NCBI GenBank assembly: GCA_040900165.1
Contig: JBBDZM010000015.1
Location: 5,383 to 65,444 of the forward strand
DNA: 60,062 nt
Source of the DNA: Patescibacteria group bacterium
Lineage (GTDB): Bacteria; Patescibacteriota; UBA1384; 2-12-FULL-50-11
Reading direction: 5' to 3'
Shown in pieces: positions 7,204-59,803 of the stretch (position 1 is its first letter; the number at the start of each line of letters is the position of its first letter). The position numbers were made by a program, and so were the translations under genes. The notes under the pieces are model-generated. The model searched no databases. It saw only the letters and a program-made list of their open reading frames with translations, and was not told where the DNA came from.

Positions 7204-7857
7204 TCAATTCTCGAAATTTTTCTCACTAATCCTATCCATTAACTCCGGTATGCGTTTAAAGTCGTCTAGCAGGGTTTGGCGCATGCCGCCGTTGTAGAGT
7301 GCCGCGGCAGGATGGTAGAGCGGCAGGTAGGCAATTGGGTACTGGAAACTGGATGCTGGAGACTGGGCTTCGGATTTTAATTTCTCCAGTTTCTCGTCTC
7401 TAGTCTCTAGTTTCGCGCTCCAAACCAGCTCGCCGTGGGCTTTGGAGATCGGGCCGATATCCGGCAAGAACGCCCCCATTGAATGCCGGCCCAAAAAACA
7501 GATTAATTTCGGCTGGATAATAGCGATTTGTTTCTTCAAAAACGGCAGTTGAAATTGAATTTCTTCCGGCAGTGGATCGCGGTTACCCGGCGGCTGGTAC
7601 TTAATAATATTGGCAATAAACACGTCGCCACGCTCCAAACCAATCGAGTTGAGCATCTCTTCTAAAAATTTCCCGGCGGCGCCAACAAATGGCCGGCCGG
7701 TCTCGTTTTCCTTGGCGCCCGGCGCCTCGCCGATAAACATAATCTGGGCATCCGGGTTACCTTCGCCCGGCACCGGGTTCTGGCCGGCAACATATTTACA
7801 CTTTTCGCATTTGGCGATGCGTTCGGCTACCAGCGCAAGCGCTTCTTGCTTGGTCAT
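7204..7857 (-). CDS. uracil-DNA glycosylase, family 4
   Basis: CEKCKY Fe-S cysteines, GEGNPDAQIMFIGEAPG and the PLYHPAAAL motif. Carries a 25-codon low-complexity insertion (see repeat 7342-7416). Confidence 0.85.
   Translation of the reverse strand: MTKQEALALVAERIAKCEKCKYVAGQNPVPGEGNPDAQIMFIGEAPGAKENETGRPFVGAAGKFLEEMLNSIGLERGDVFIANIIKYQPPGNRDPLPEEIQFQLPFLKKQIAIIQPKLICFLGRHSMGAFLPDIGPISKAHGELVWSAKLETRDEKLEKLKSEAQSPASSFQYPIAYLPLYHPAAALYNGGMRQTLLDDFKRIPELMDRISEKNFEN
7342..7416 (-). repeat. period-7 inverted heptad array, in frame inside udg
   Basis: Coding strand reads GAAACTA GAGACTA GAGACGA GAAACTG GAGAAAT ... CAGTCTC CAGCATC CAGTTTC. It is 75 nt and encodes AKLETRDEKLEKLKSEAQSPASSFQ. Confidence 0.8.
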
Positions 7858-22686: not shown

Positions 22687-23726
22687 AAATATTAGCAATT
22701 GAGACATCCTGTGACGAAACCGCGGCCTCCATTGTCGAAGAAGACAATTTCCGCCCGGTTGTTTTGAGCGAAGCGGTGGCCTCGCAGATGGCTATCCATG
22801 CCGAGAGCGGTGGGGTTATTCCTAATGTTGCCGCCCGTTTGCACGTCGAAAATTTGCCAGCCGTGCTGAAGAAAGCCACCGACTCGCAGCGGCTGGACTA
22901 CGATGCTGTCGCGGTTACCGTTGGGCCCGGCTTGATCGGCTCACTCTTGGTTGGCGTGGCCGCCGCCAAAACGATTGCGATGGCTAAAGATTTGCCGTTT
23001 TTTGCCGTTAACCATATGGCTGGACATGTATATAGCGCTTGGCTAGCGCCAAGCGAAACTGGAGACTCGAAACTAGAGACTGGGTTGCCCCAGCTACCGG
23101 CGCTGTTTGTGATTGTCTCCGGCGGGCACACCGAATTGGTGTTGATGGAGCGGCATTACCGCTTCCAGCTGCTCGGCGCTACCCGGGATGACGCCGCCGG
23201 CGAGGCCTTCGACAAGGTTGCCCGGATGCTCGGCCTGCCCTACCCCGGCGGCCCGGCGATTTCGGAGCTGGCCCGCCATGGTCGAAGCGACGCCATTGAT
23301 TTCCCGATCGGCCTGAACGAACGCGACAACCTGGACTTTTCCTTCAGCGGTCTGAAAGGCGCTGTTTTCCACGAAATTCAAAAACACCCGGCTCCGCTTT
23401 CCGAGCATCTCCGCGCCGACATCGCCGCCAGCTTTCAAGACACCGTTGCCCGGACTATCAGCCGCAAAACCGTCGCCGCTCTGCAATCCAACCCGGAGGT
23501 TCGCTCGGTCTGTTTGGTCGGCGGCGTGGCGGCTAATAAGCATCTGCGAGTTGAGCTAGAAAAGGCCGTCAAAAATGCCCGGGGCGATGTTCAATTCCAT
23601 TTAGCTCCGCTGCAGTACTGTACCGACAACGCCGCCATGATTGGCGCGGCGGCAATTTTCAAACACCTATTTTCCAAGCCAGACGATTGGAGCCTGGTCG
23701 AAGCAAATCCAAACTTCGAACTATGA
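22683..23726 (+). CDS. tsaD: tRNA N6-adenosine threonylcarbamoyltransferase TsaD
   Basis: MKILAIETSCDETA, NHMAGH, SGGHTEL and GGVAANK motifs. AGGAGG lies 7 nt upstream of ATG 22683, so the track ORF start at 22647 is probably too long. Confidence 0.93.
   Translation: MKILAIETSCDETAASIVEEDNFRPVVLSEAVASQMAIHAESGGVIPNVAARLHVENLPAVLKKATDSQRLDYDAVAVTVGPGLIGSLLVGVAAAKTIAMAKDLPFFAVNHMAGHVYSAWLAPSETGDSKLETGLPQLPALFVIVSGGHTELVLMERHYRFQLLGATRDDAAGEAFDKVARMLGLPYPGGPAISELARHGRSDAIDFPIGLNERDNLDFSFSGLKGAVFHEIQKHPAPLSEHLRADIAASFQDTVARTISRKTVAALQSNPEVRSVCLVGGVAANKHLRVELEKAVKNARGDVQFHLAPLQYCTDNAAMIGAAAIFKHLFSKPDDWSLVEANPNFEL
23055..23082 (+). repeat. period-7 heptad array in frame inside tsaD
   Basis: GAAACTG GAGACTC GAAACTA GAGACTG encodes ETGDSKLETG. 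It shares GAAACTAGAGACT with the udg insertion. Confidence 0.7.
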
Positions 23727-23822: not shown

Positions 23823-24362
23823 ATGAAACTTCGGGTTACGGTACTGATTGACGGCAGTAATTTTTATTTCAAATTAAAAGACTTGAAGTTGAACAACCTC
23901 TTGGGCTTTAACTTCGGGACATTTGTCAGAGACCTGGTTGGCGAGAAAAACAATTTGGTTCATGCCACCTACTACGTCGGGCGAATTAGACAAGATGGCA
24001 GCAAAAAAACCGAGAAATTATTTGCCAGTCAACAAAAACTAATTGCCGCCCTGAAGAAGCACGGCGTCCGCTACTCTTTTGGGTATCTTCTGAAAACTGA
24101 TGGGCGCTATCACGAAAAAGGCGTCGATGTCCAAATGGCGACGGATATTTTGGTGGCTTCCTACGAAAATACCTGCGACAAAGTTGTCCTTGTTTCTTCC
24201 GATACCGATTTAGCTCCAGCGATAAAAAAATCCCGGGAAAAGAAAAGACGTGTTGAGTATATCGGCTTTTCCCACCAGCCCAGCGTTGCGATGGTTAGCT
24301 TCTGTTCCTCGTCGCGTCTATTAACAAAAGAGGAAATAAATCAGTACGCCTCGGGAAAATAA
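23823..24362 (+). CDS. NYN/LabA-like domain protein
   Basis: VLIDGSNFYF, GVDVQMATDIL and VLVSSDTDLAPA are acidic NYN/PIN-like nuclease motifs. The stop overlaps the valS ATG (TAATG). Confidence 0.75.
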   Translation: MKLRVTVLIDGSNFYFKLKDLKLNNLLGFNFGTFVRDLVGEKNNLVHATYYVGRIRQDGSKKTEKLFASQQKLIAALKKHGVRYSFGYLLKTDGRYHEKGVDVQMATDILVASYENTCDKVVLVSSDTDLAPAIKKSREKKRRVEYIGFSHQPSVAMVSFCSSSRLLTKEEINQYASGK

Positions 24363-26509
24363 TGAACGAAATTCCTACCCGTTACGACCACGCTAAAGAG
24401 CCGGATTTGTATAAATCTTGGGAGGAGGCCGGCGAGTTTAAACCGACTGGCAACGGCGAGCCGTTCTCGATGATTATCCCGCCGCCCAACGTCACCGGCG
24501 ATCTCCATTTAGGCCACGGCCTGACTTACGCCGTCCACGACACCATTGCTCGGCACCAGCGCCGGCTTGGCAAAGATGTTTTGCTGCTACCGGGCGCCGA
24601 CCACGCCGCCATTGCCGTCCAACACTTGGTGGAGAAAAAACTCCAAAAAGATGGGGTGCGCCGGACGGAAATGGGCCGAGAAAAATTCCTCGAAGAGGTC
24701 TGGAAGTGGACTAACTATTATCTGCCGCGGATTCAAGCGAGTTTGCGCCGGTTTGGCTTGTCGGCCGACTGGAGTCGGTTTCGTTTTACGATGGACGAAC
24801 AGTCGCAGAAAGCCGTGACCGAGGCCTTTGTCCGCTTGCACGAGCAGGGATTAATTTACCAAGGAACGTATCTAATCAACTGGGACCCGAAGCTGCAGAC
24901 GGCCGTCTCGGACGACGAAGTTAACTATCAGCAAATTACCGGCAAACTTTATTGGATTAAGTACGGCCCGATCAGCGTGGCCACTACCCGGCCGGAGACG
25001 AAGCTGGGCGACACGGCCATCGCCGTCAACCCGATCGACCAGCGCTATAAAAAGTACGTCGGCCAAGAAATTGAGTTCAAAAACGAGCAGGGAGCCATGC
25101 AGAAACTGCCGGTGATTGCCGACGAGTCGGTTGACCCGGAGTTTGGCACTGGCGCTCTCAAGGTAACCCCCGCCCACGACCCGCTGGACTGGGAGCTCGG
25201 CCAAAAACACAAATTACCGAGCAAGCAGGTGATCGATCAATTCGGCAAAATCTCGGCCGAAGGCCCGTACGCCGGGCTGAAAACACTGGAAGCCCGGGAA
25301 AAAATTGTGGCCGACTTAGAAAAGCTGGGTTTGCTGGAAAAAGTGACCGAGCACAACATCCGCCAGCCAATCTCGGAACGCTCCGGAGCGATCATTGAGC
25401 CGCTGCCGTCAAAACAGTGGTTTATGAAAACCACCGCTCTCAAAAACGAGGCGGCCAAAGCCGTCCAAAGCGGCGCGATTAAGTTTTACCCAAAGAACGT
25501 CGAGAAAATTTACTTTCATTGGCTGGAGAATCTGCACGACTGGTGTATCTCTCGGCAGTTGTGGTGGGGACACCACATTCCGGCTTGGTACTGCCGGAAT
25601 GCAAGTGGCAAGGGTCAAGTAGCAAGTAGCAAAGAGCCGGTTATTGCTGCCCAAAGGCCGAAAAAATGCCCAATTTGCGGGGAATGCGAGATGGTTCAGG
25701 ACCCGGATGTGCTGGACACTTGGTTTTCGGCGGGGATTTGGCCGTTCTCGACGTTAGGCTGGCCTTTACCCCGAGCGAAGTCGAGGGGTTCCGACGATAT
25801 CGCTTCTCAACAATCCGATTTCACCCGCTACTTCCCCACTTCCCTGCTGGAAACTGGTGCCGATATACTGTTTTTCTGGGTCGCCCGGATGATTATGATG
25901 AGCCAAGCCCTGACTAAACAAATTCCATTCAAAGAAGTTTACTTTCACGGCCTGGTTTTGGACGATCAGGGGCAGAAAATGAGCAAGAGCAAGGGCAACG
26001 TACTGGATCCGCTGGCATTAATTGACAAATACGGCGCCGATGCTGTCCGGATGAGCTTAATCGGCGGTAACTCCGCCGGACTACCGCAACGGTTCTCCGA
26101 GCAGAAAGTGCTGAAATACCGCAATTTTGTCACTAAAATCTGGAATGCCGCCCGCTTCACCGCACTCTCAGCGGGAAATTCTAAACTCGAAACTCTAAAC
26201 TCTAAAAGTCTTGATGAAACTGAAAAGAAATTCATTAAACGCTTAGATGCTCTGGAGAAAGACAATCCGCGCTTAATCGCCGGCTACAAGCTGGGCGTGG
26301 CGCTGGAGGCGCTCTACGAATTTTTCTGGCATGATTTTGCCGACCAATTAATCGAGTACGAAAAGAAAATTATCCAAGAATCTACCGATCCGGGCCGAGT
26401 CCGCCAAAGCCAAGAGTTTCTGATGCTGGTGCTAAAACGCCAACTAACGCTGCTGGAAGATTTCGCGCCGTTTGTGGTCCGGACGATTAAAAAAGAGATG
26501 CTCCATTGA
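24362..26509 (+). CDS. valS: valine--tRNA ligase (short form, no C-terminal coiled coil)
   Basis: PPPNVTGDLHLGHG (HIGH), TTRPETKLGDTAIAV and KMSKSKGN. Only 715 aa. Confidence 0.92.
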   Translation: MNEIPTRYDHAKEPDLYKSWEEAGEFKPTGNGEPFSMIIPPPNVTGDLHLGHGLTYAVHDTIARHQRRLGKDVLLLPGADHAAIAVQHLVEKKLQKDGVRRTEMGREKFLEEVWKWTNYYLPRIQASLRRFGLSADWSRFRFTMDEQSQKAVTEAFVRLHEQGLIYQGTYLINWDPKLQTAVSDDEVNYQQITGKLYWIKYGPISVATTRPETKLGDTAIAVNPIDQRYKKYVGQEIEFKNEQGAMQKLPVIADESVDPEFGTGALKVTPAHDPLDWELGQKHKLPSKQVIDQFGKISAEGPYAGLKTLEAREKIVADLEKLGLLEKVTEHNIRQPISERSGAIIEPLPSKQWFMKTTALKNEAAKAVQSGAIKFYPKNVEKIYFHWLENLHDWCISRQLWWGHHIPAWYCRNASGKGQVASSKEPVIAAQRPKKCPICGECEMVQDPDVLDTWFSAGIWPFSTLGWPLPRAKSRGSDDIASQQSDFTRYFPTSLLETGADILFFWVARMIMMSQALTKQIPFKEVYFHGLVLDDQGQKMSKSKGNVLDPLALIDKYGADAVRMSLIGGNSAGLPQRFSEQKVLKYRNFVTKIWNAARFTALSAGNSKLETLNSKSLDETEKKFIKRLDALEKDNPRLIAGYKLGVALEALYEFFWHDFADQLIEYEKKIIQESTDPGRVRQSQEFLMLVLKRQLTLLEDFAPFVVRTIKKEMLH
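25601..25635 (+). repeat. period-7 array in frame in the valS Zn-knuckle region
   Basis: GCAAGTG GCAAGGG TCAAGTA GCAAGTA GCAAAGA encodes ASGKGQVASSKE, between WYC and CPICGEC. Confidence 0.6.
26175..26209 (+). repeat. period-7 array in frame in valS
   Basis: GAAATTC TAAACTC GAAACTC TAAACTC TAAAAGT encodes GNSKLETLNSKS. Confidence 0.7.
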
Positions 26510-48346: not shown

Positions 48347-48688
48347 ATGCTTAAAAGTATTAACCGTCTGAAAAAAGATACGGATTTTCAGGCGGTTTGG
48401 CGCTCCGGCAAGCGAACGGCTTGCGGGGATTTAGCGATATTGATTATGCCAAATAGCACCAATCAGTCACGCTGTGGGGTGGTTGTGTCTAAAAAAATCA
48501 GCCGCAATGCCGTTAACCGCAACCGGATTCGCCGGATTATTTTGTCGGAGCTATCAGAATTACTTTATCAAGGCACTCTACCGACCGGCAGCGATATCGT
48601 TGTTAGGATACTACGACTACCGCAAGACATTGATAATTCCCAAGCAATCAGGACCCAACTACGAGAATGTTTCGCCAAGCTGTCGTAG
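48347..48688 (+). CDS. rnpA: ribonuclease P protein component
   Basis: 113 aa, basic, with the RNR motif-like VNRNRIRR, in the rpmH-rnpA-yidD-yidC synteny. Confidence 0.85.
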   Translation: MLKSINRLKKDTDFQAVWRSGKRTACGDLAILIMPNSTNQSRCGVVVSKKISRNAVNRNRIRRIILSELSELLYQGTLPTGSDIVVRILRLPQDIDNSQAIRTQLRECFAKLS

Positions 48689-48912
48689 GGCTAATCTCCA
48701 TCTATCAACGAACGCTATCGCCGGATCACGGATTGCTGAAGTTTTTTTACCCAAACGGCGCTTGCCGGTTTCAGCCAACCTGCTCCGAATATACCAAAGA
48801 TGCGGTGGCTCGCTACGGGGTGATAAAGGGGCTATACTTGGGCTCGAAGCGAGTTAGTCGCTGCCACCCGGGGAAAATTGGTGGCTACGACCCAGTCCCC
48901 AAAAAACAATGA
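48667..48912 (+). CDS. yidD: membrane protein insertion efficiency factor YidD
   Basis: LISIYQRTLSP....CRFQPTCSEY signature. Confidence 0.85.
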   Translation: MFRQAVVGLISIYQRTLSPDHGLLKFFYPNGACRFQPTCSEYTKDAVARYGVIKGLYLGSKRVSRCHPGKIGGYDPVPKKQ

Positions 48913-49015
48913 AATACGAATATCGAAATTCGAAACAATATCCAAATCCAAATTTTGAAAATTTAAAACGTTTTAAATTTGTTTCGGATTTCGAGCTTGG
49001 TGCTTCGGATTTTTG
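48911..49015. repeat. period-7 inverted heptad arrays (yidD-yidC spacer)
   Basis: Left arm GAAATAC GAATATC GAAATTC GAAACAA, central 22-bp perfect palindrome AAATTTAAAACGTTTTAAATTT (48959-48980), right arm GTTTCGG ATTTCGA GCTTGGT GCTTCGG ATTTTTG. Confidence 0.8.
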
Positions 49016-49024
49016 TAATTACTG

Positions 49025-49771
49025 ATGGTTGCTGATTTTTTCCGAGCAATTCTTTACACACCTCTTTTTAACCTTTTGGTATTTTTCGCCTGGTTGATAC
49101 CGGGTCACAGCATTGGCTGGTCGATTATTATCGTCACCCTAATTGTTAAGGCAATCCTCTGGGTGCCATCGGCCAAATCAATCCGCTCCCCGATTCAGAT
49201 GCGCCAATACCAAGATGAGATCAAAGAACTCCAGGATCGTCACAAAGACAACAAGGCCGCCCAGAGCCAGGCGTTAATGGCGTTTTACAAAGAGAAGGGG
49301 ATTAATCCCCTCTCCGGCTGTTTGCCGTTATTAATCCAGTTGCCGGTAATCTTTGTGCTTTACCGAGTGTTTATTGCCGGTTTGGGTGATGTCCATTTTG
49401 ACCTGGTTTACTCGTTCGTCCCCCACCTCGATGCCATTAACACCCACTTTTTCGGCATTGATTTAGCCCATCCAAGCAAAATTGTTCTACCGATTATCGC
49501 CGGTGGCCTGCAATTTTTACAGAGTCGCCATATGATGTTGTTGAATCCGCCATCCAAGACCAGTAAAGACCCGACGGCGATGATGCAGAAACAGATGATG
49601 TACCTATTCCCAGTGATGACTTACTTTATTGCCAGCTCTTTGCCGGCGGGATTAGCTCTTTACTGGGCGACCAACGCCCTGGTTTCTACTGCCCAACAGG
49701 AAGTAATCCGCCGAACCTACCACCCAACCGAGCCGAAGGTTAAGGTGACCGTTCGGACAAAGAACAAATAA
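49025..49771 (+). CDS. yidC: membrane protein insertase YidC (short form)
   Basis: 248 aa with five TM segments and the motifs GINPLSGCLPLLIQLPV and LPAGLALYW. Confidence 0.85.
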   Translation: MVADFFRAILYTPLFNLLVFFAWLIPGHSIGWSIIIVTLIVKAILWVPSAKSIRSPIQMRQYQDEIKELQDRHKDNKAAQSQALMAFYKEKGINPLSGCLPLLIQLPVIFVLYRVFIAGLGDVHFDLVYSFVPHLDAINTHFFGIDLAHPSKIVLPIIAGGLQFLQSRHMMLLNPPSKTSKDPTAMMQKQMMYLFPVMTYFIASSLPAGLALYWATNALVSTAQQEVIRRTYHPTEPKVKVTVRTKNK

Positions 49772-50795: not shown

Positions 50796-51176
50796 ATGGC
50801 AAAGAAAAACGAACAAATTCAGGAGGAGTGGTTGGAGGAGGAAGAAGAGGGTCAGCTAGCTGTTGACGCTTACCAGGACGACGAGAACGTTATCCTCAAA
50901 GCCCCGATCGCTGGCGTTAATATGGAAGATCTGGAGATTTCCATCACCGACGAAGTCGTGACCATTAAGGGTCAGCGTCGCAACGAGACAGAAGTCGACC
51001 GCCAAAACTACTTTGTCCAGGAATGTTACTGGGGTGGGTTTATGCGCTCCTACATCTTGCCAGTCTCGGTTGACGCCTCCAAAGCCGAAGCCTTTCTGCG
51101 CAACGGCATTCTAACGATCAAAATTCCTAAGCAAGAAAAAACCAAGACCCGAGTTTTGAAGGTCCAGGTTGGTTAG
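50796..51176 (+). CDS. Hsp20/alpha-crystallin family small heat-shock protein
   Basis: 126 aa with an alpha-crystallin domain pattern (..AVDAYQDDENVILKAPIAGV..., GILTIKIPK). Confidence 0.85.
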   Translation: MAKKNEQIQEEWLEEEEEGQLAVDAYQDDENVILKAPIAGVNMEDLEISITDEVVTIKGQRRNETEVDRQNYFVQECYWGGFMRSYILPVSVDASKAEAFLRNGILTIKIPKQEKTKTRVLKVQVG

Positions 51177-51292
51177 GAAGAATTAAGTAGTAAGAATTAC
51201 GAATTAAGAAATCGACGAAATCTGGTGGATTTTTTATCGTTATTCTTAATTCATAATACATAATTCTTTCTTATGAATCTTGAATCTCTTCG
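51177..51292. repeat. period-7 inverted heptad arrays (hsp20-SBP spacer)
   Basis: Left arm GAATTAA GTAGTAA GAATTAC GAATTAA GAAATCG, then an inner hairpin plus T-run (AAATC-TGGTG-GATTTTTT), then right arm TTCTTAA TTCATAA TACATAA TTCTTTC TTATGAA TCTTGAA TCTCTTC. Confidence 0.8.
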
Positions 51293-51315
51293 TGTTTTAA
51301 GCGACGCTATTAGTG

Positions 51316-52659
51316 ATGAAGCGAGGGGTTCTTATTATTGCCGGCCTGGTAGTAGTTTTGGTAGCGGTTTTCGTTGTCGTTACCCTGGTTAACCGCGGCA
51401 ACGTGGTGTCGGAAGATAAAAGCCTAACCGTTTATTTACCCTTTGACGAAGTTAAAACTTACCAGAAAATCTCCGAGCAATTTATTACTGCCAACCCTGG
51501 CGCTGAGCTAAATTTTAAGTTTATCGATGCCAAGGACGCTAAAGAATACGAGGCGAAAGTTGTTAACGAAATCGCCGACGGTGCTGGACCAGATATCTGG
51601 GTAGTCCGAAGCGATTGGATCCCTAAACACGCCGCCAAATCCCTGCCGTACACTGCTGACAACGAAAATCCCATCGCAAGCGCGAAAACCGTAATTGAAC
51701 CAGCCTTAGTCGATTTGAATATTTACCAGGGGGAGCTCTACGGTGTTCCGCTTTTTGCTGATTCGTTAGCGGTTATCTATAACGTCGACTTTATTAGAGC
51801 AGTTGCCGATGGTGCCTCCGCTTCGGTTGTAAAAACATTGAGCCAGTTTCCTGCTACCTGGAAGGTTGTTCAGGATCAGGCGGCGCTTGTTAGTAAAAAA
51901 TCCGGCAGTGTTATCACCCGTTCAGCAATTGCCTTGGGCACAATTGAAACCGGTTACGCTCCGGTCGATGTTCTCTCGGCAATGTTGGTTCAAAACGGAG
52001 CCAGTGTTCTCAACGACGACGAAACTAAAGTCGCCTTTGATCTAGCTCAGTTCAAAGATGGCAAATCCAGCTTCCCAGCCACCGAGGCGCTGGATCTATT
52101 CACTAGTTTTGCACGTTCCTCCAAGAGTAACTACAGCTGGAATAACGACCTCGGCGCCGCTTTAGAGGCTTTTAAGGCCGGTAAAACAGGGGCAATTATT
52201 GGTTATTACTCCTTGTTGCGTGAGTTGGTAGATGAGGAACCGTCATTCGAGATCGGTGTTGCCGCTCTTCCACAAATTTCCACTAAAACTGACCGAGTTG
52301 ATTTCGGGATAACTTGGAGCCATATCATCAATGCTCAGTCGACAGCCCCAGTGCTAGCCAAAAGCTACCTTTCTTACTTGACTCAAGGAGATGTCCAGAA
52401 GGCCTATATTGAATTAACCGGGAAGATCGGAGCAGCGCCGTTAGAGCAAGAAGTCTCTGATGATATTAGCAGCCCCGGCTTGGCGGCAAGCGAAGTTTAC
52501 TGGCCGCAGCTCAAGACCGTCCAACAACTTACCAAAAAAGACTGGCAGAGGGTCGACGAGATTCTCCAGGATACCGTTAAGTTGGTCATTAACTCTAAGG
52601 GGTCGCTCCAGTCGGCTATTAACACCGCCGCCAAGCAACTAGAAGAGCTGATTAAATAA
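51316..52659 (+). CDS. extracellular solute-binding protein (ABC sugar-type SBP), TM-anchored
   Basis: N-terminal TM anchor and family-1 SBP-like sequence (DIWVVRSDWIP, ...GAIIGYYS). No permease or ATPase gene is adjacent. The stop overlaps the first pilin ATG (TAATG). Confidence 0.7.
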   Translation: MKRGVLIIAGLVVVLVAVFVVVTLVNRGNVVSEDKSLTVYLPFDEVKTYQKISEQFITANPGAELNFKFIDAKDAKEYEAKVVNEIADGAGPDIWVVRSDWIPKHAAKSLPYTADNENPIASAKTVIEPALVDLNIYQGELYGVPLFADSLAVIYNVDFIRAVADGASASVVKTLSQFPATWKVVQDQAALVSKKSGSVITRSAIALGTIETGYAPVDVLSAMLVQNGASVLNDDETKVAFDLAQFKDGKSSFPATEALDLFTSFARSSKSNYSWNNDLGAALEAFKAGKTGAIIGYYSLLRELVDEEPSFEIGVAALPQISTKTDRVDFGITWSHIINAQSTAPVLAKSYLSYLTQGDVQKAYIELTGKIGAAPLEQEVSDDISSPGLAASEVYWPQLKTVQQLTKKDWQRVDEILQDTVKLVINSKGSLQSAINTAAKQLEELIK

Positions 52660-57995: not shown

Positions 57996-58474
57996 AGACC
58001 CACACTAAAAAAGCCGACGGCAAAGTGATTGAGATTAACCCGAAAGACAGTATCCACCACGATAAAAACCAACTCTGGTACATCGGCGTTGGGATACTGT
58101 TGGTTGGTTTCTTGGTTTTGACGGTTAGCTCCAGAGACTACTTGCTAACAGCCGTTGTTGTTGCGGCGGCGATTGCTATATTTCGCCTGGCCAATCTCAA
58201 AATCGAGAAAAAAGACATTGCCTTGTCCGACAATGGTGTCCGTTGGGGCAAAGAGTCTTTTGGATTTCACAGTTTCCGGGCGTTCTGGGTTGGCACTCAC
58301 GGCGCTGACTACACCGTTTATCTCGACCGGCTTAACTGGCGGCCAACGATTAGTTTTACCATCGAAGAAAAAGACGTCGAATCAGTGATCGACGTTTTAG
58401 CCCAAAACCTGCCGTTCCACGCTCACCGCAACACTCCCCTGCCCGATCGCTTTGCTAGGCTGCTTAAGCTCTAG
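57992..58474 (+). CDS. hypothetical two-TM membrane protein (possibly bPH-like)
   Basis: ATGA overlap with the toxin stop, two adjacent TM helices, then a beta-rich domain of about 90 aa. Confidence 0.4.
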   Translation: MKTHTKKADGKVIEINPKDSIHHDKNQLWYIGVGILLVGFLVLTVSSRDYLLTAVVVAAAIAIFRLANLKIEKKDIALSDNGVRWGKESFGFHSFRAFWVGTHGADYTVYLDRLNWRPTISFTIEEKDVESVIDVLAQNLPFHAHRNTPLPDRFARLLKL

Positions 58475-59802
58475 CCAAAGATTAGTTGGCGTTTTAGGTA
58501 GAACAGTATTCCAAATATCACCAATATCAGACCAAGCCCGGCGATCCCAAAATTGCGATCCTTACTTTTTTGGGCGGCAACTAAGCTTGTTTGATTGGCT
58601 TGGGCGATTTGATATGCCTCGGTTTCGTCAGTGCTAAGGACAACAGTAACTTTTCCCCCTTCGGCAACGCTAACCTCAAACCCAACGGTGGGGCTGGGGC
58701 TAGTGGCTTGGGAGTCTTTTTTAGCCCGAACAACCAGCTGATAGTAGCCAGCGGCAATCGGCGAGTTAACGATTAGTTGCCAAGTCCCATCGGCACCGAT
58801 AATCGGGGCAGGGTATTTTTTGCTGTCGAGCTCCCAATCCGGCGTAATTGTTAGCTCAACGTTGTAGCCGGCCGGCCCAGTGCCAGTAATTTTTATACCC
58901 GTCAGAGTCCCGTGGTCGAGATCGTTGCTGTGATCGTCGGTTGTGGTAATTTCGATAATTGCCGGGATTGCCAACGACTGATCGGTTTGAGGGACAACGG
59001 TAATTTTAAAATGGGTTGTTGGTCCCCAGCCATCGGAGTTATTGGGGCGGATATGAAAGTAGTAAGTGCCAACTTTGTTGCCCTTAAATTCTACGGCGGT
59101 TTTAGTGGTTTTAATTTTGGTTGGCGGGGTGGTTTTATTCTTACTATCGAACACATAGGAATAGCCGTTGGCACCGTTGGACGGAGCTTTCCAGCTTAGT
59201 TTAATATCCGGGCTATCGTAGGATTTTTCTTGATTGGGGTGCGTCGATGAGCTGACGGCCACCGATCCTGGTGGCGTTGGCGCAGGAATAATTGTAAAGC
59301 TTGTGGAGCCACCGCTAGTGCCAACTTCCGACCCGGAGTAAGCCAGTCGCACACCGCTAACACTAACGTAGCCGCTGCCGGTACTGGTGCCGCGCAGGGT
59401 AATAGTGGCAACAGTTAAGGACGATCGGGCGCTGGTGATACCAACAAACTGATTGTTATTGGCCGGCGATTTACCGGGCAGCCAAGTAGCCGAGCCAGCA
59501 TAAAAAGAAACAATTGTTACCGGACCAACGACCGAAATTTTCCCCTGCAGGCTATCAAACGTTGTCCCACCAGCGAAAACCGAGACAGTAAAGTTACTGC
59601 CAGCGGTCTTGGTGCCGCCACCGCTGGCCGATATATAGCCACTACCCGCGGCCAGTGCCGAAGGCGGCAGAAACAAGAATATAGATTCAAGAATCAAGAA
59701 TAAGGATAAAAGACCCCTTAGCAATTTATATTTAGATGGGAGTGCCAAATCTTGAATTTTGAATCTTAAGTCTTGAATCTTGAATCTTGAATCTTGAATC
59801 AT
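58471..59802 (-). CDS. cell-surface protein: cohesin-like N-domain, Ig/FN3-like repeats, C-terminal TM anchor
   Basis: Signal peptide ...FLFLPPSALA. The domain GSNFTVSVFAGGTTFDSLQGKISVVGPVTIVSF...TVATITLRG resembles cohesin. Followed by HPNQ...YYFHIRPNNSDGWG and a TM helix plus KRQ tail. The start is uncertain because the first 40 codons or so lie in heptad repeats. Confidence 0.55.
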   Translation of the reverse strand: MIQDSRFKIQDLRFKIQDLALPSKYKLLRGLLSLFLILESIFLFLPPSALAAGSGYISASGGGTKTAGSNFTVSVFAGGTTFDSLQGKISVVGPVTIVSFYAGSATWLPGKSPANNNQFVGITSARSSLTVATITLRGTSTGSGYVSVSGVRLAYSGSEVGTSGGSTSFTIIPAPTPPGSVAVSSSTHPNQEKSYDSPDIKLSWKAPSNGANGYSYVFDSKNKTTPPTKIKTTKTAVEFKGNKVGTYYFHIRPNNSDGWGPTTHFKITVVPQTDQSLAIPAIIEITTTDDHSNDLDHGTLTGIKITGTGPAGYNVELTITPDWELDSKKYPAPIIGADGTWQLIVNSPIAAGYYQLVVRAKKDSQATSPSPTVGFEVSVAEGGKVTVVLSTDETEAYQIAQANQTSLVAAQKSKDRNFGIAGLGLILVIFGILFYLKRQLIFG

Positions 59803-59803
59803 T
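59670..59803. repeat. period-7 inverted heptad arrays at the 5' end of the surface-protein gene
   Basis: Plus-strand left arm GAAACAA GAATATA GATTCAA GAATCAA GAATAAG GATAAAA, a 36-nt spacer, then right arm AATCTTG AATTTTG AATCTTA AGTCTTG AATCTTG AATCTTG AATCTTG AATCATT. Confidence 0.85.

Follow-up and report, generated by a model that had tools for sequence, protein, structure and literature searches.

Three kinds of repeat described in bacteria come close to the locus analysed here. Rickettsia palindromic elements (RPEs) are palindromic elements of ~150 bp that many Rickettsia genes carry in frame (Ogata et al. 2000, summarised in PMC10969869). Heptanucleotide repeats are the most abundant class of long simple sequence repeats (SSRs) and form convergent pairs in Xanthomonas, the only cause proposed for them being polymerase slippage (PMC4692102, PMC4679880). 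Intervening sequences (IVSs) are selfish stem-loops, some of them with an S23p/PF05635 open reading frame (ORF), that take the place of rRNA tetraloops and are excised by RNase III (PMC4990558). The locus is a translated 75-nt hairpin with arms of 7-nt units, located inside the family-4 uracil-DNA glycosylase (UDG) gene, udg, of a Berkelbacteria-type bacterium of the candidate phyla radiation (CPR; Patescibacteria). It lies in a stretch of 60,062 nt, called the window below, which corresponds to C15:5383-65444 of a 589,614-bp genome in 20 contigs (G000); positions given with no contig name are those of the window.

We consider it likely that the udg segment is a gene-less hairpin repeat element with complementary degenerate 7-nt arms (GAAACTN / NAGTTTC), which inserted into a turn of UDG and partly overwrote it, in the manner of an RPE or of a miniature inverted-repeat transposable element (MITE), and which brought a passenger peptide with it. 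Hairpins of the same build fill gene spacers throughout the genome, and in relatives such hairpins form multi-copy families in unrelated housekeeping genes. The same architecture, with many AT-rich units alike, brackets the PF05635 gene (23S rRNA intervening-sequence protein, an Avd-like four-helix bundle) across Patescibacteria. Gene calls were crude, with 88% of the genome coding and 12% non-coding, and the relatives compared are non-independent samples, those of the same genus being G001, G002 and G003.

The udg insert and its site

The udg gene occupies positions 7204..7857 on the minus strand and encodes a protein of 217 aa (Pfam PF03167, E 1.7e-34; PDB 4zbx, E 3e-46). The segment lies at 7342..7416 on the same strand and reads, from 7416 to 7342, gcg aaa cta gag act aga gac gag aaa ctg gag aaa tta aaa tcc gaa gcc cag tct cca gca tcc agt ttc cag; its 75 nt are translated into the 25 residues AKLETRDEKLEKLKSEAQSPASSFQ, directly before YPIAYLPLYHPAA. 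Both the coordinates and the sequence had been given in a first-pass annotation of this DNA, and they were exact on re-reading. The reading frame and the catalytic motifs are intact, with GEAPG and LYHPAA present in the 217-aa ORF.

The GA-type arm, GAAACTA GAGACTA GAGACGA GAAACTG GAGAAAT, was located at 7383..7416 (minus strand; Tandem Repeats Finder (TRF) row 7383-7411), and the complementary arm, CAGTCTC CAGCATC CAGTTTC CAG, at 7342..7366 (minus strand; TRF row 7341-7366). Folding of the arms, which the first-pass annotation had proposed as a check, gave a pairing hairpin with a free energy of -22.7 kcal/mol under RNA parameters (z -3.3). A DNA cruciform or hairpin was rejected for this segment, as the fold with DNA parameters was non-significant (z -0.65) and significance was reached for the RNA fold only.

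Among the 29 UDG-bearing relatives, most align to the query as residues 1-145 and 176-213, with ~6 residues in between, and a UDG that lacks the segment is present in all three same-genus genomes. When 5.8 billion proteins were searched and the best 120 UDG homologues inspected, ~90% of these were 187-197 aa long. The homologues with extra residues at the turn carry peptides that are wholly different between lineages. In a tree of 46 proteins built after removal of the insert columns, the UDG of this genome was sister (95/95) to the insert-free protein P0002, with which it is 90% identical. The DNA of the empty site in a sister relative (L181) reads ATT GAA AAA GAT AGC CAA TTT TAC; filled and empty sites differ by a net gain of 25 aa, and ~11 nt of the old turn were replaced.

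The position of the insert was also followed in protein structures. Residues 6-146 and 175-206 are matched by 4zbx, the best solved structure, whose turn has 6 residues compared to 28 here, and all solved family-4 structures have a short turn at this position. In an AlphaFold2 model with a mean predicted local distance difference test (pLDDT) score of 82.6, the insert scored 45-51 and the core 88-95. Sequence comparison shows that the udg segment was inserted, and it is translated as a loop of ~25 extra residues at a surface turn, that of the beta-hairpin before the catalytic LPLYHPAA strand. The proposals of the first-pass annotation that the segment was inserted in frame and that it would occupy a surface loop are thus borne out.

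Two further observations were made on this protein. Of the four Fe-S cysteines only the first two are kept (C17, C20), the other two of 4zbx aligning to Tyr87 and Gln103, which are invariant in 46 Berkelbacteria-type UDG homologues. A second UDG insertion site, located after LPG, holds ~15 residues (YSLPVKSDKLPLSSKPA-like) in relatives that include the same-genus L004 (G003) and L006 (G002), and is absent here.

The segment might also be ancestral, that is, an old part of a UDG lineage which most relatives have lost. The first-pass annotation had named peptides shared with distant orthologues as the observation that would overturn an insertion; the orthologues have no shared peptide, and the insert-bearing ones carry different ones. 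Seven of the ten UDGs with a turn insert fall in one weakly supported group (82/84), insert-bearing UDG alleles often have the same left-junction Trp and APS is common to the TsaD alleles, all of which would suit common descent. Coding arrays can also persist: the in-frame PpsA array at C15:3947-3987 (NHDSRFMNLES) is orthologous, of the same length and heptameric in L181:18404-18446 (NQESRIMSHES), at 84% aa identity. Because this array has been kept at the same position and length, some coding arrays are old and stable. However, a single clade of the ten insert-bearing UDGs was rejected by the approximately unbiased (AU) test (delta lnL 79.6, p 0.004), so that a single origin of the turn insert was discarded, although the UDG trees (~175 columns) are poorly resolved and the 22-taxon tree is too unresolved to decide. 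Together with the insert-free sister protein, the short turn in most of the top homologues and in all solved structures, and the unrelated inserted peptides, this makes an ancestral segment very improbable.

A perfect heptamer array encodes one cyclic 7-residue peptide in all three frames, seven being coprime to three, and a stop codon within the tandem unit recurs in each frame once per 21 nt. It had been pointed out in the first-pass annotation that the coding copies remain open and all spell KLET. The observation is correct: K-L-E-T is common to UDG, TsaD and the second ValS array (with KLEA in DinB), because the shared unit GAAACTN gives KLET in any phase. As a sign of selection it fails, since it follows automatically from the unit; the sharing of KLET alone is no evidence of selection, and the evidence is found in point edits that remove in-frame TAG codons. 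GAAACTA-GA holds a TAG, and both TAGs left in udg are out of frame. The third udg unit, GAGACGA, has a T to G change exactly at the would-be in-frame TAG, the tsaD unit at the corresponding place is GAGACTC, and the second udg arm has CAG where the perfect complement gives TAG. The udg stem is interrupted by these stop-avoiding edits. The AT-rich units that dominate the spacers hold TAA or TGA in every frame. A general rule that coding arrays are stop-free in all frames was rejected, as only one sense frame of the udg arm is open.

Recurrence, copying and period 7

Heptamer hairpins of other kinds were found at the same turn of UDG in relatives. In G006 the turn holds GGAACTA GGAGCTA GGAACTC GGAACTA ... 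TAGTACC TAGCTCC CAGTCCC TAGTACC, in G010 it holds CAGCTAT x5 ... GCTGAGA GCAGCAA GCTGACA, and G011 and G007 carry further heptamer hairpin variants. A second site used repeatedly is the TsaD loop after HMAGHVYSAWL. In the window, this loop contains the one-armed array GAAACTG GAGACTC GAAACTA GAGACTG (23055..23082, plus strand; TRF period-14 row at 23054-23081; fold z -0.6), with ~10-11 residues more than in the closest relative, G002, whose TsaD is 88% identical (APSETGDSKLETG vs GEA). The same loop is occupied by heptamer arrays or hairpins of other units in G006, G010, G009, G022, G023, G025 and G027.

Heptamer units vary likewise among relatives at two variable segments of ValRS. The first is represented in the window by a one-armed array of unit GCAAGTA (25601..25635, plus strand; TRF 25601-25632; fold z +0.3), translated as NASGKGQVASSKE, and the second, in a linker, by a one-armed array of unit AAACTCT (26175..26209, plus strand; TRF 26176-26206; fold z +1.0), translated as NSKLETLNSKS. 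The repeated use of the same loops could be due to a strong filter, with few loops being permissive, or to a target preference.

Copying was detected in the relative G006, the TsaD insert of which is a hairpin of 69 nt (CAGGAACTAGGAGCTAGGAACTTGGAACTAG-ATGGAAAACTAG-TACCTAGTCCCCAGTGCCCAGTCCCC). At least seven near-full-length copies of it, with 71-100% identity, sit in TsaD, UDG, the C-terminal tail of ribosomal protein L19, Fpg/MutM and a large membrane protein, the arms being split by 128 nt in the membrane-protein copy. All the coding copies are read in one stop-free frame, QELGARNxELDGKLVPSxQSxVP, and the Fpg site is empty in the present genome. As whole hairpins with the same loop at unlinked loci are not possible by in-place slippage, the G006 family arose by copy-and-paste or by ectopic conversion. 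The dispersed family of period-7 inverted arrays that the first-pass annotation had postulated therefore exists as a multi-copy family in unrelated genes of this relative. Another of the copies (L090, G006:C37:72-133) is located ~40 nt upstream of the 16S rRNA 5' end (...AGAGTTTGATCATGGCTCAG), a position that recalls rRNA processing stems and IVS elements.

The excess of period 7 that had been expected genome-wide was confirmed by three counts, and no other repeat period is in excess in this genome. TRF gave 63 rows of period 7, compared to 16 of period 6 and 13 of period 8; a lag-autocorrelation scan gave 30-31 segments at lag 7, 0-4 at other lags that are not multiples of 7 and ~0 in Markov shuffles; and a looser detector gave 51 arrays at lag 7 and 0-7 at lags 5, 6, 8, 9, 10 and 11. 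The non-coding 12% of the DNA holds 36 of these 51 arrays, within the accuracy of the crude gene calls. Intergenic arrays typically start 2-20 nt past a stop codon and end 6-25 nt ahead of the next start, and the intergenic hairpins fill co-directional spacers exactly. The GA anchor of the units, noted in the first pass, is real and sharpens to GAA: GAA/TTC is present in 38 of the 51 consensus units (GAATTAA, GAAATTC, GAATTAT, GAAACTC and others), with a chance expectation of ~24%. Coding arrays have 38% GC and non-coding ones 25% (p 1.6e-4). A greater degeneracy of coding arrays was tried and dropped, as the medians are equal and only very long perfect arrays are exclusively non-coding.

These data also bear on an origin in place, in which slippage of a seed heptamer (polymerase slippage in steps of ~7 nt) would have built one arm and fold-back template switching the second, nothing having moved. 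Polymerase slippage is what the literature proposes for heptamer SSRs (Mrazek 2007, as cited in PMC4679880 and PMC4692102). Two spacers, C6:12566-12642 with 9 perfect copies of TCGTGAA and C20:31085-31143 with ~7 copies of ATTCATA (95% match), have a regularity that implies recent slippage expansion. The unit sequences vary from locus to locus, the udg copy is without a sibling in this genome, and the one-armed or length-neutral coding arrays of TsaD, ValS and LeuRS would suit such an origin. In contrast, the G006 copies of a complete two-armed hairpin with the same loop in unrelated genes are beyond in-place slippage, and the udg and TsaD inserts of this one genome are closer to each other than to the orthologous inserts elsewhere. 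Therefore, an origin of the udg segment in place is considered unlikely.

The LeuRS array (C9:12370-12400, FKIHESRFKI) occupies a variable segment with little or no length change, compared to what we take to be a typical LeuRS sequence. The second ValS array is only ~1 residue longer than its counterpart in the closest relative, with little length change with respect to the orthologues, and relatives have other heptamer units there. Both suggest overwriting or conversion rather than simple insertion.

The PF05635 cassette and the other arrays of the window

The genome contains a single PF05635 gene (C11:1248-1634, 134.8 bits, weak bAvd-like match), with a surface-protein gene on either side. 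Its flanks are AAGATTTAAGAATATAGATTAAAGATTTAC and the complementary CTCTTAAATCTTTAATCTTAAATCTG, the whole cassette covering C11:1217-1657; the cassette has protein-coding ORFs on both sides, and this locus gave no Rfam match, to rRNA or to any other family. When one genome per species was scanned, homologues were obtained at 80 loci, mostly labelled Patescibacteria, in which arrays were counted within 160 nt on each side of the gene, with lags 5, 6, 8, 9 and 10 as controls. A lag-7 array was present upstream in 62 of the 80 loci and downstream in 60 of them, compared to 0-2 per side for the control lags. Arrays were found on both sides at 52/80 PF05635 genes (65%) and at 5/170 other genes of the same loci (2.9%), and the array density was 4.6 per kb beside the PF05635 gene and 0.32 per kb in the rest of the flanks.

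On the sense strand, the arms upstream of the gene are of the GA type (GATTTAA, GATTTAT, GAATTAA, GATTCAT, GAATCAA and others) and the downstream arms are their complements. Units of these arms (among them GAATTAA, GAATTAT, GATTTAA and GAATCAA) overlap those of the gene-less hairpins of this genome; the presence of these arm units on both sides of PF05635 genes at 65% of the loci also speaks against an origin of the hairpins in place. The udg copy has no ORF and so lacks the four-helix-bundle gene of the cassette. A specific version of this relation, in which the heptamer-armed hairpins are the non-autonomous form of a widespread mobile cassette with PF05635 as its only gene, and in which this protein would read the 7-nt register of the arms and drive their copying, is put forward tentatively, as a proposal with a low probability of being right.

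A second region of similar layout was observed at C9:26168-26666, where inverted heptamer arms (GAATTAA... / ...TTAATTC) surround a 115-aa ORF (C9:26235-26582) with a predicted membrane segment. The ORF had no Pfam match, and the region would be a second, non-PF05635, gene-bearing cassette.

Several points weigh against the interpretation of the udg segment as an inserted mobile hairpin related to this cassette. No full-length sibling of the udg element was found in its own genome or in congeners, the only match being one of 14 nt, exact, to the TsaD array; because of this, mobility is established for the class, in a relative, and not for the udg copy, which is probably an older, diverged copy. 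Neither a target-site duplication nor a clean boundary is visible at udg in the comparison with the empty site of L181. The unit of the udg and TsaD arrays, GAAACTN, is not among the commonest PF05635 arm units, and for this reason the udg copy is tied to the cassette by architecture and by the shared GA(A) anchor. We know of no enzymatic activity of PF05635, and no transposase or recombinase was identified. Finally, the TsaD and ValS arrays are one-armed, and one of them is length-neutral, so some coding arrays may have arisen or been remodelled in place.

With these points in mind, the following course of events is proposed for the insertion of the hairpin element. The hairpins would be non-autonomous, MITE- or RPE-like derivatives of the PF05635 cassette, or would at least share a propagation mechanism with it. 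They would land widely and persist nowhere but in spacers or, where stop-poor, in frame within permissive surface loops, and point changes would then remove the in-frame TAG codons. Slipped-strand mispairing would lengthen or shorten the arms by 7 nt, a process that would be counter-selected within genes because one step shifts the frame. The peptide inserted in UDG would most likely be a tolerated passenger.

Three further hairpins of the window lie outside the enzyme-coding arrays described above. One (48911..49015, plus strand; fold z -3.1) fills the spacer of an 81-aa ORF (yidD, 48667-48912) and a 248-aa ORF (yidC, 49025-49771); it is weaker and under the detection thresholds, yet it folds. 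Another, with units GAATTAA / TTAATTC (51177..51292, plus strand; TRF 51178-51210 and 51242-51266; fold z -3.75), fills the spacer that separates the hsp20 ORF (50796-51176) from the ORF after it (51313-52659). The third, with units GATTCAA / TTGAATC (59670..59803, minus strand; TRF 59669-59701 and 59748-59800; fold z -2.65 to -3.07), is at the 5' end of a surface-protein gene (58471-59802). All the loci of the window that the first-pass annotation had counted, seven or more, were located; a second arm exists in udg and in the intergenic and surface-protein loci, whereas TsaD and both ValS arrays are one-armed and unfolded.

The 5' hairpin of the surface-protein gene (443 aa) is apparently translated as a signal peptide: MIQDSRFKIQDLRFKIQDL is encoded by the GA arm, and the hydrophobic core LSLFLILESIFLFL, with PPSALA|AGSG after it, by the T-rich arm. 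The ATG is preceded by an AAGG at a distance of 8 nt, and homologues have a similar core (FFLILYSIFLIL) with repeat-like N-regions (NNELRIQK, EYRILNAG). Between tsaD and valS, a 179-aa NYN-domain gene (23823-24362, plus strand) was also observed; in G002 tsaD ends 12 nt before valS, and the gene looks like a lineage-specific insertion.

The hairpins might also have been selected for a function, either of the mRNA hairpin in regulation or processing (as a stability element or a target of RNase III) or of the loop as a new interaction surface of UDG. The significant RNA fold of udg, the exact filling of co-directional spacers by the intergenic copies and the seeming co-option of a hairpin arm as a signal peptide in the surface-protein family agree with this, as does the fact that RNase III acts on the IVS stems of the related cassette (PMC4990558). 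However, the closest relatives manage without the udg segment, its peptide differs from lineage to lineage and is predicted to be disordered, and its stem is broken by the stop-avoiding edits. An intrinsic terminator, with a GC-rich stem and a U-run, was rejected, as no heptamer hairpin of the window was among the terminator-like sites of a consensus scan, and so was a known RNA family, the Rfam matches in the window being four tRNAs only. A selected function of the udg hairpin is thus regarded as improbable.

Significance and comparison with known systems

The class described here shows that the unexplained heptanucleotide repeats of bacteria can act as copy-and-paste hairpin elements, and the ultra-small CPR genomes carry such elements as surface loops of essential enzymes (UDG, TsaD, ValRS, LeuRS, DinB, MnmA, PpsA), in parallel to the RPEs of Rickettsia. 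For annotation, this would account for many 'CPR-specific insertions' and odd N-terminal leaders, such segments being repeat-derived and not functional domains. The quantitative link to PF05635 makes this protein a testable candidate for the maker or mover of heptamer repeats. Should PF05635 indeed read the 7-nt register, the old puzzle of heptanucleotide repeats, such as the short tandemly repeated repetitive (STRR) sequences and their kin, would be explained, and a main source would have been identified from which CPR proteins obtain lineage-specific loops, linkers and even signal peptides.

MITEs, repetitive extragenic palindromic (REP) sequences and BOX-type repeats of bacteria are, like the elements described here, small, non-coding, hairpin-forming and multi-copy, and are mostly found at gene ends. 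They differ in that the arms here are internally repetitive with a 7-nt period, and in that inverted arms are present here but neither a target-site duplication nor a transposase partner nor a REP-associated tyrosine transposase (RAYT) was found.

The 23S rRNA IVSs with an S23p/PF05635 ORF, known from Coxiella and Leptospira (PMC4990558), are also stem-loops that end in inverted repeats, and a small four-helix-bundle ORF may or may not be present in the loop. They likewise take the place of a short turn or tetraloop in a macromolecule of the host, are sporadic and are regarded as selfish. In contrast, the udg copy is ORF-less, lies in a protein gene and, as read from its intact frame, would be translated rather than excised by RNase III, and the PF05635 cassette of this genome is located between protein genes, outside 23S rRNA and thus away from helix 9, 25 or 45. 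In the literature searched, no published description of a heptamer build of IVS or PF05635 arms was found, nor one of in-frame heptamer hairpins in CPR, which is not proof of novelty.

With the heptanucleotide SSRs (cyanobacterial STRR, Xanthomonas GGGAATC, Nostoc GGGGAYT and Beggiatoaceae TAACTGA; PMC4692102, PMC4679880) the present elements share an over-represented period of 7, a mainly intergenic location, frequent convergent inverted pairs, and a length and sequence that vary between close relatives. Here, the units are GAA-anchored and of many kinds, with no single dominant one, and are not G-quadruplex-forming; whole two-armed hairpins act as dispersed copies, and a notable share of them is translated in essential genes. 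The first-pass annotation had been unable to assign the repeats to a described family. This has to be corrected in part, as heptanucleotide repeats and their inverted pairs had already been described in those two papers. The published units (STRR units, GGGAATC, TAACTGA) are not matched by the units found here.

The likeness to the RPEs, which the first-pass annotation had also drawn, is supported by the insertion itself, the pairing arms, the intact frame, the surface turn and the copying in G006. In both cases short palindromic repeats lie in frame in unrelated housekeeping genes of a reduced genome, they add a peptide at fold-compatible positions, and several families occur per genome. The differences are the size (~150 nt for RPEs vs ~70-110 nt here), the arms, which here are tandem heptanucleotide arrays encoding the same peptide in all three frames, and the distribution, as the present class also fills intergenic spacers and brackets the PF05635 gene. 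The separation from RPEs proper is made by host, here a Berkelbacteria-type CPR bacterium, and by description, RPE sequences not having been compared. Not assigned by sequence to any of the three kinds, RPE, heptanucleotide SSR or IVS, the element works like an RPE, is built like a pair of heptamer SSRs and has the architecture of the IVS-protein cassette.

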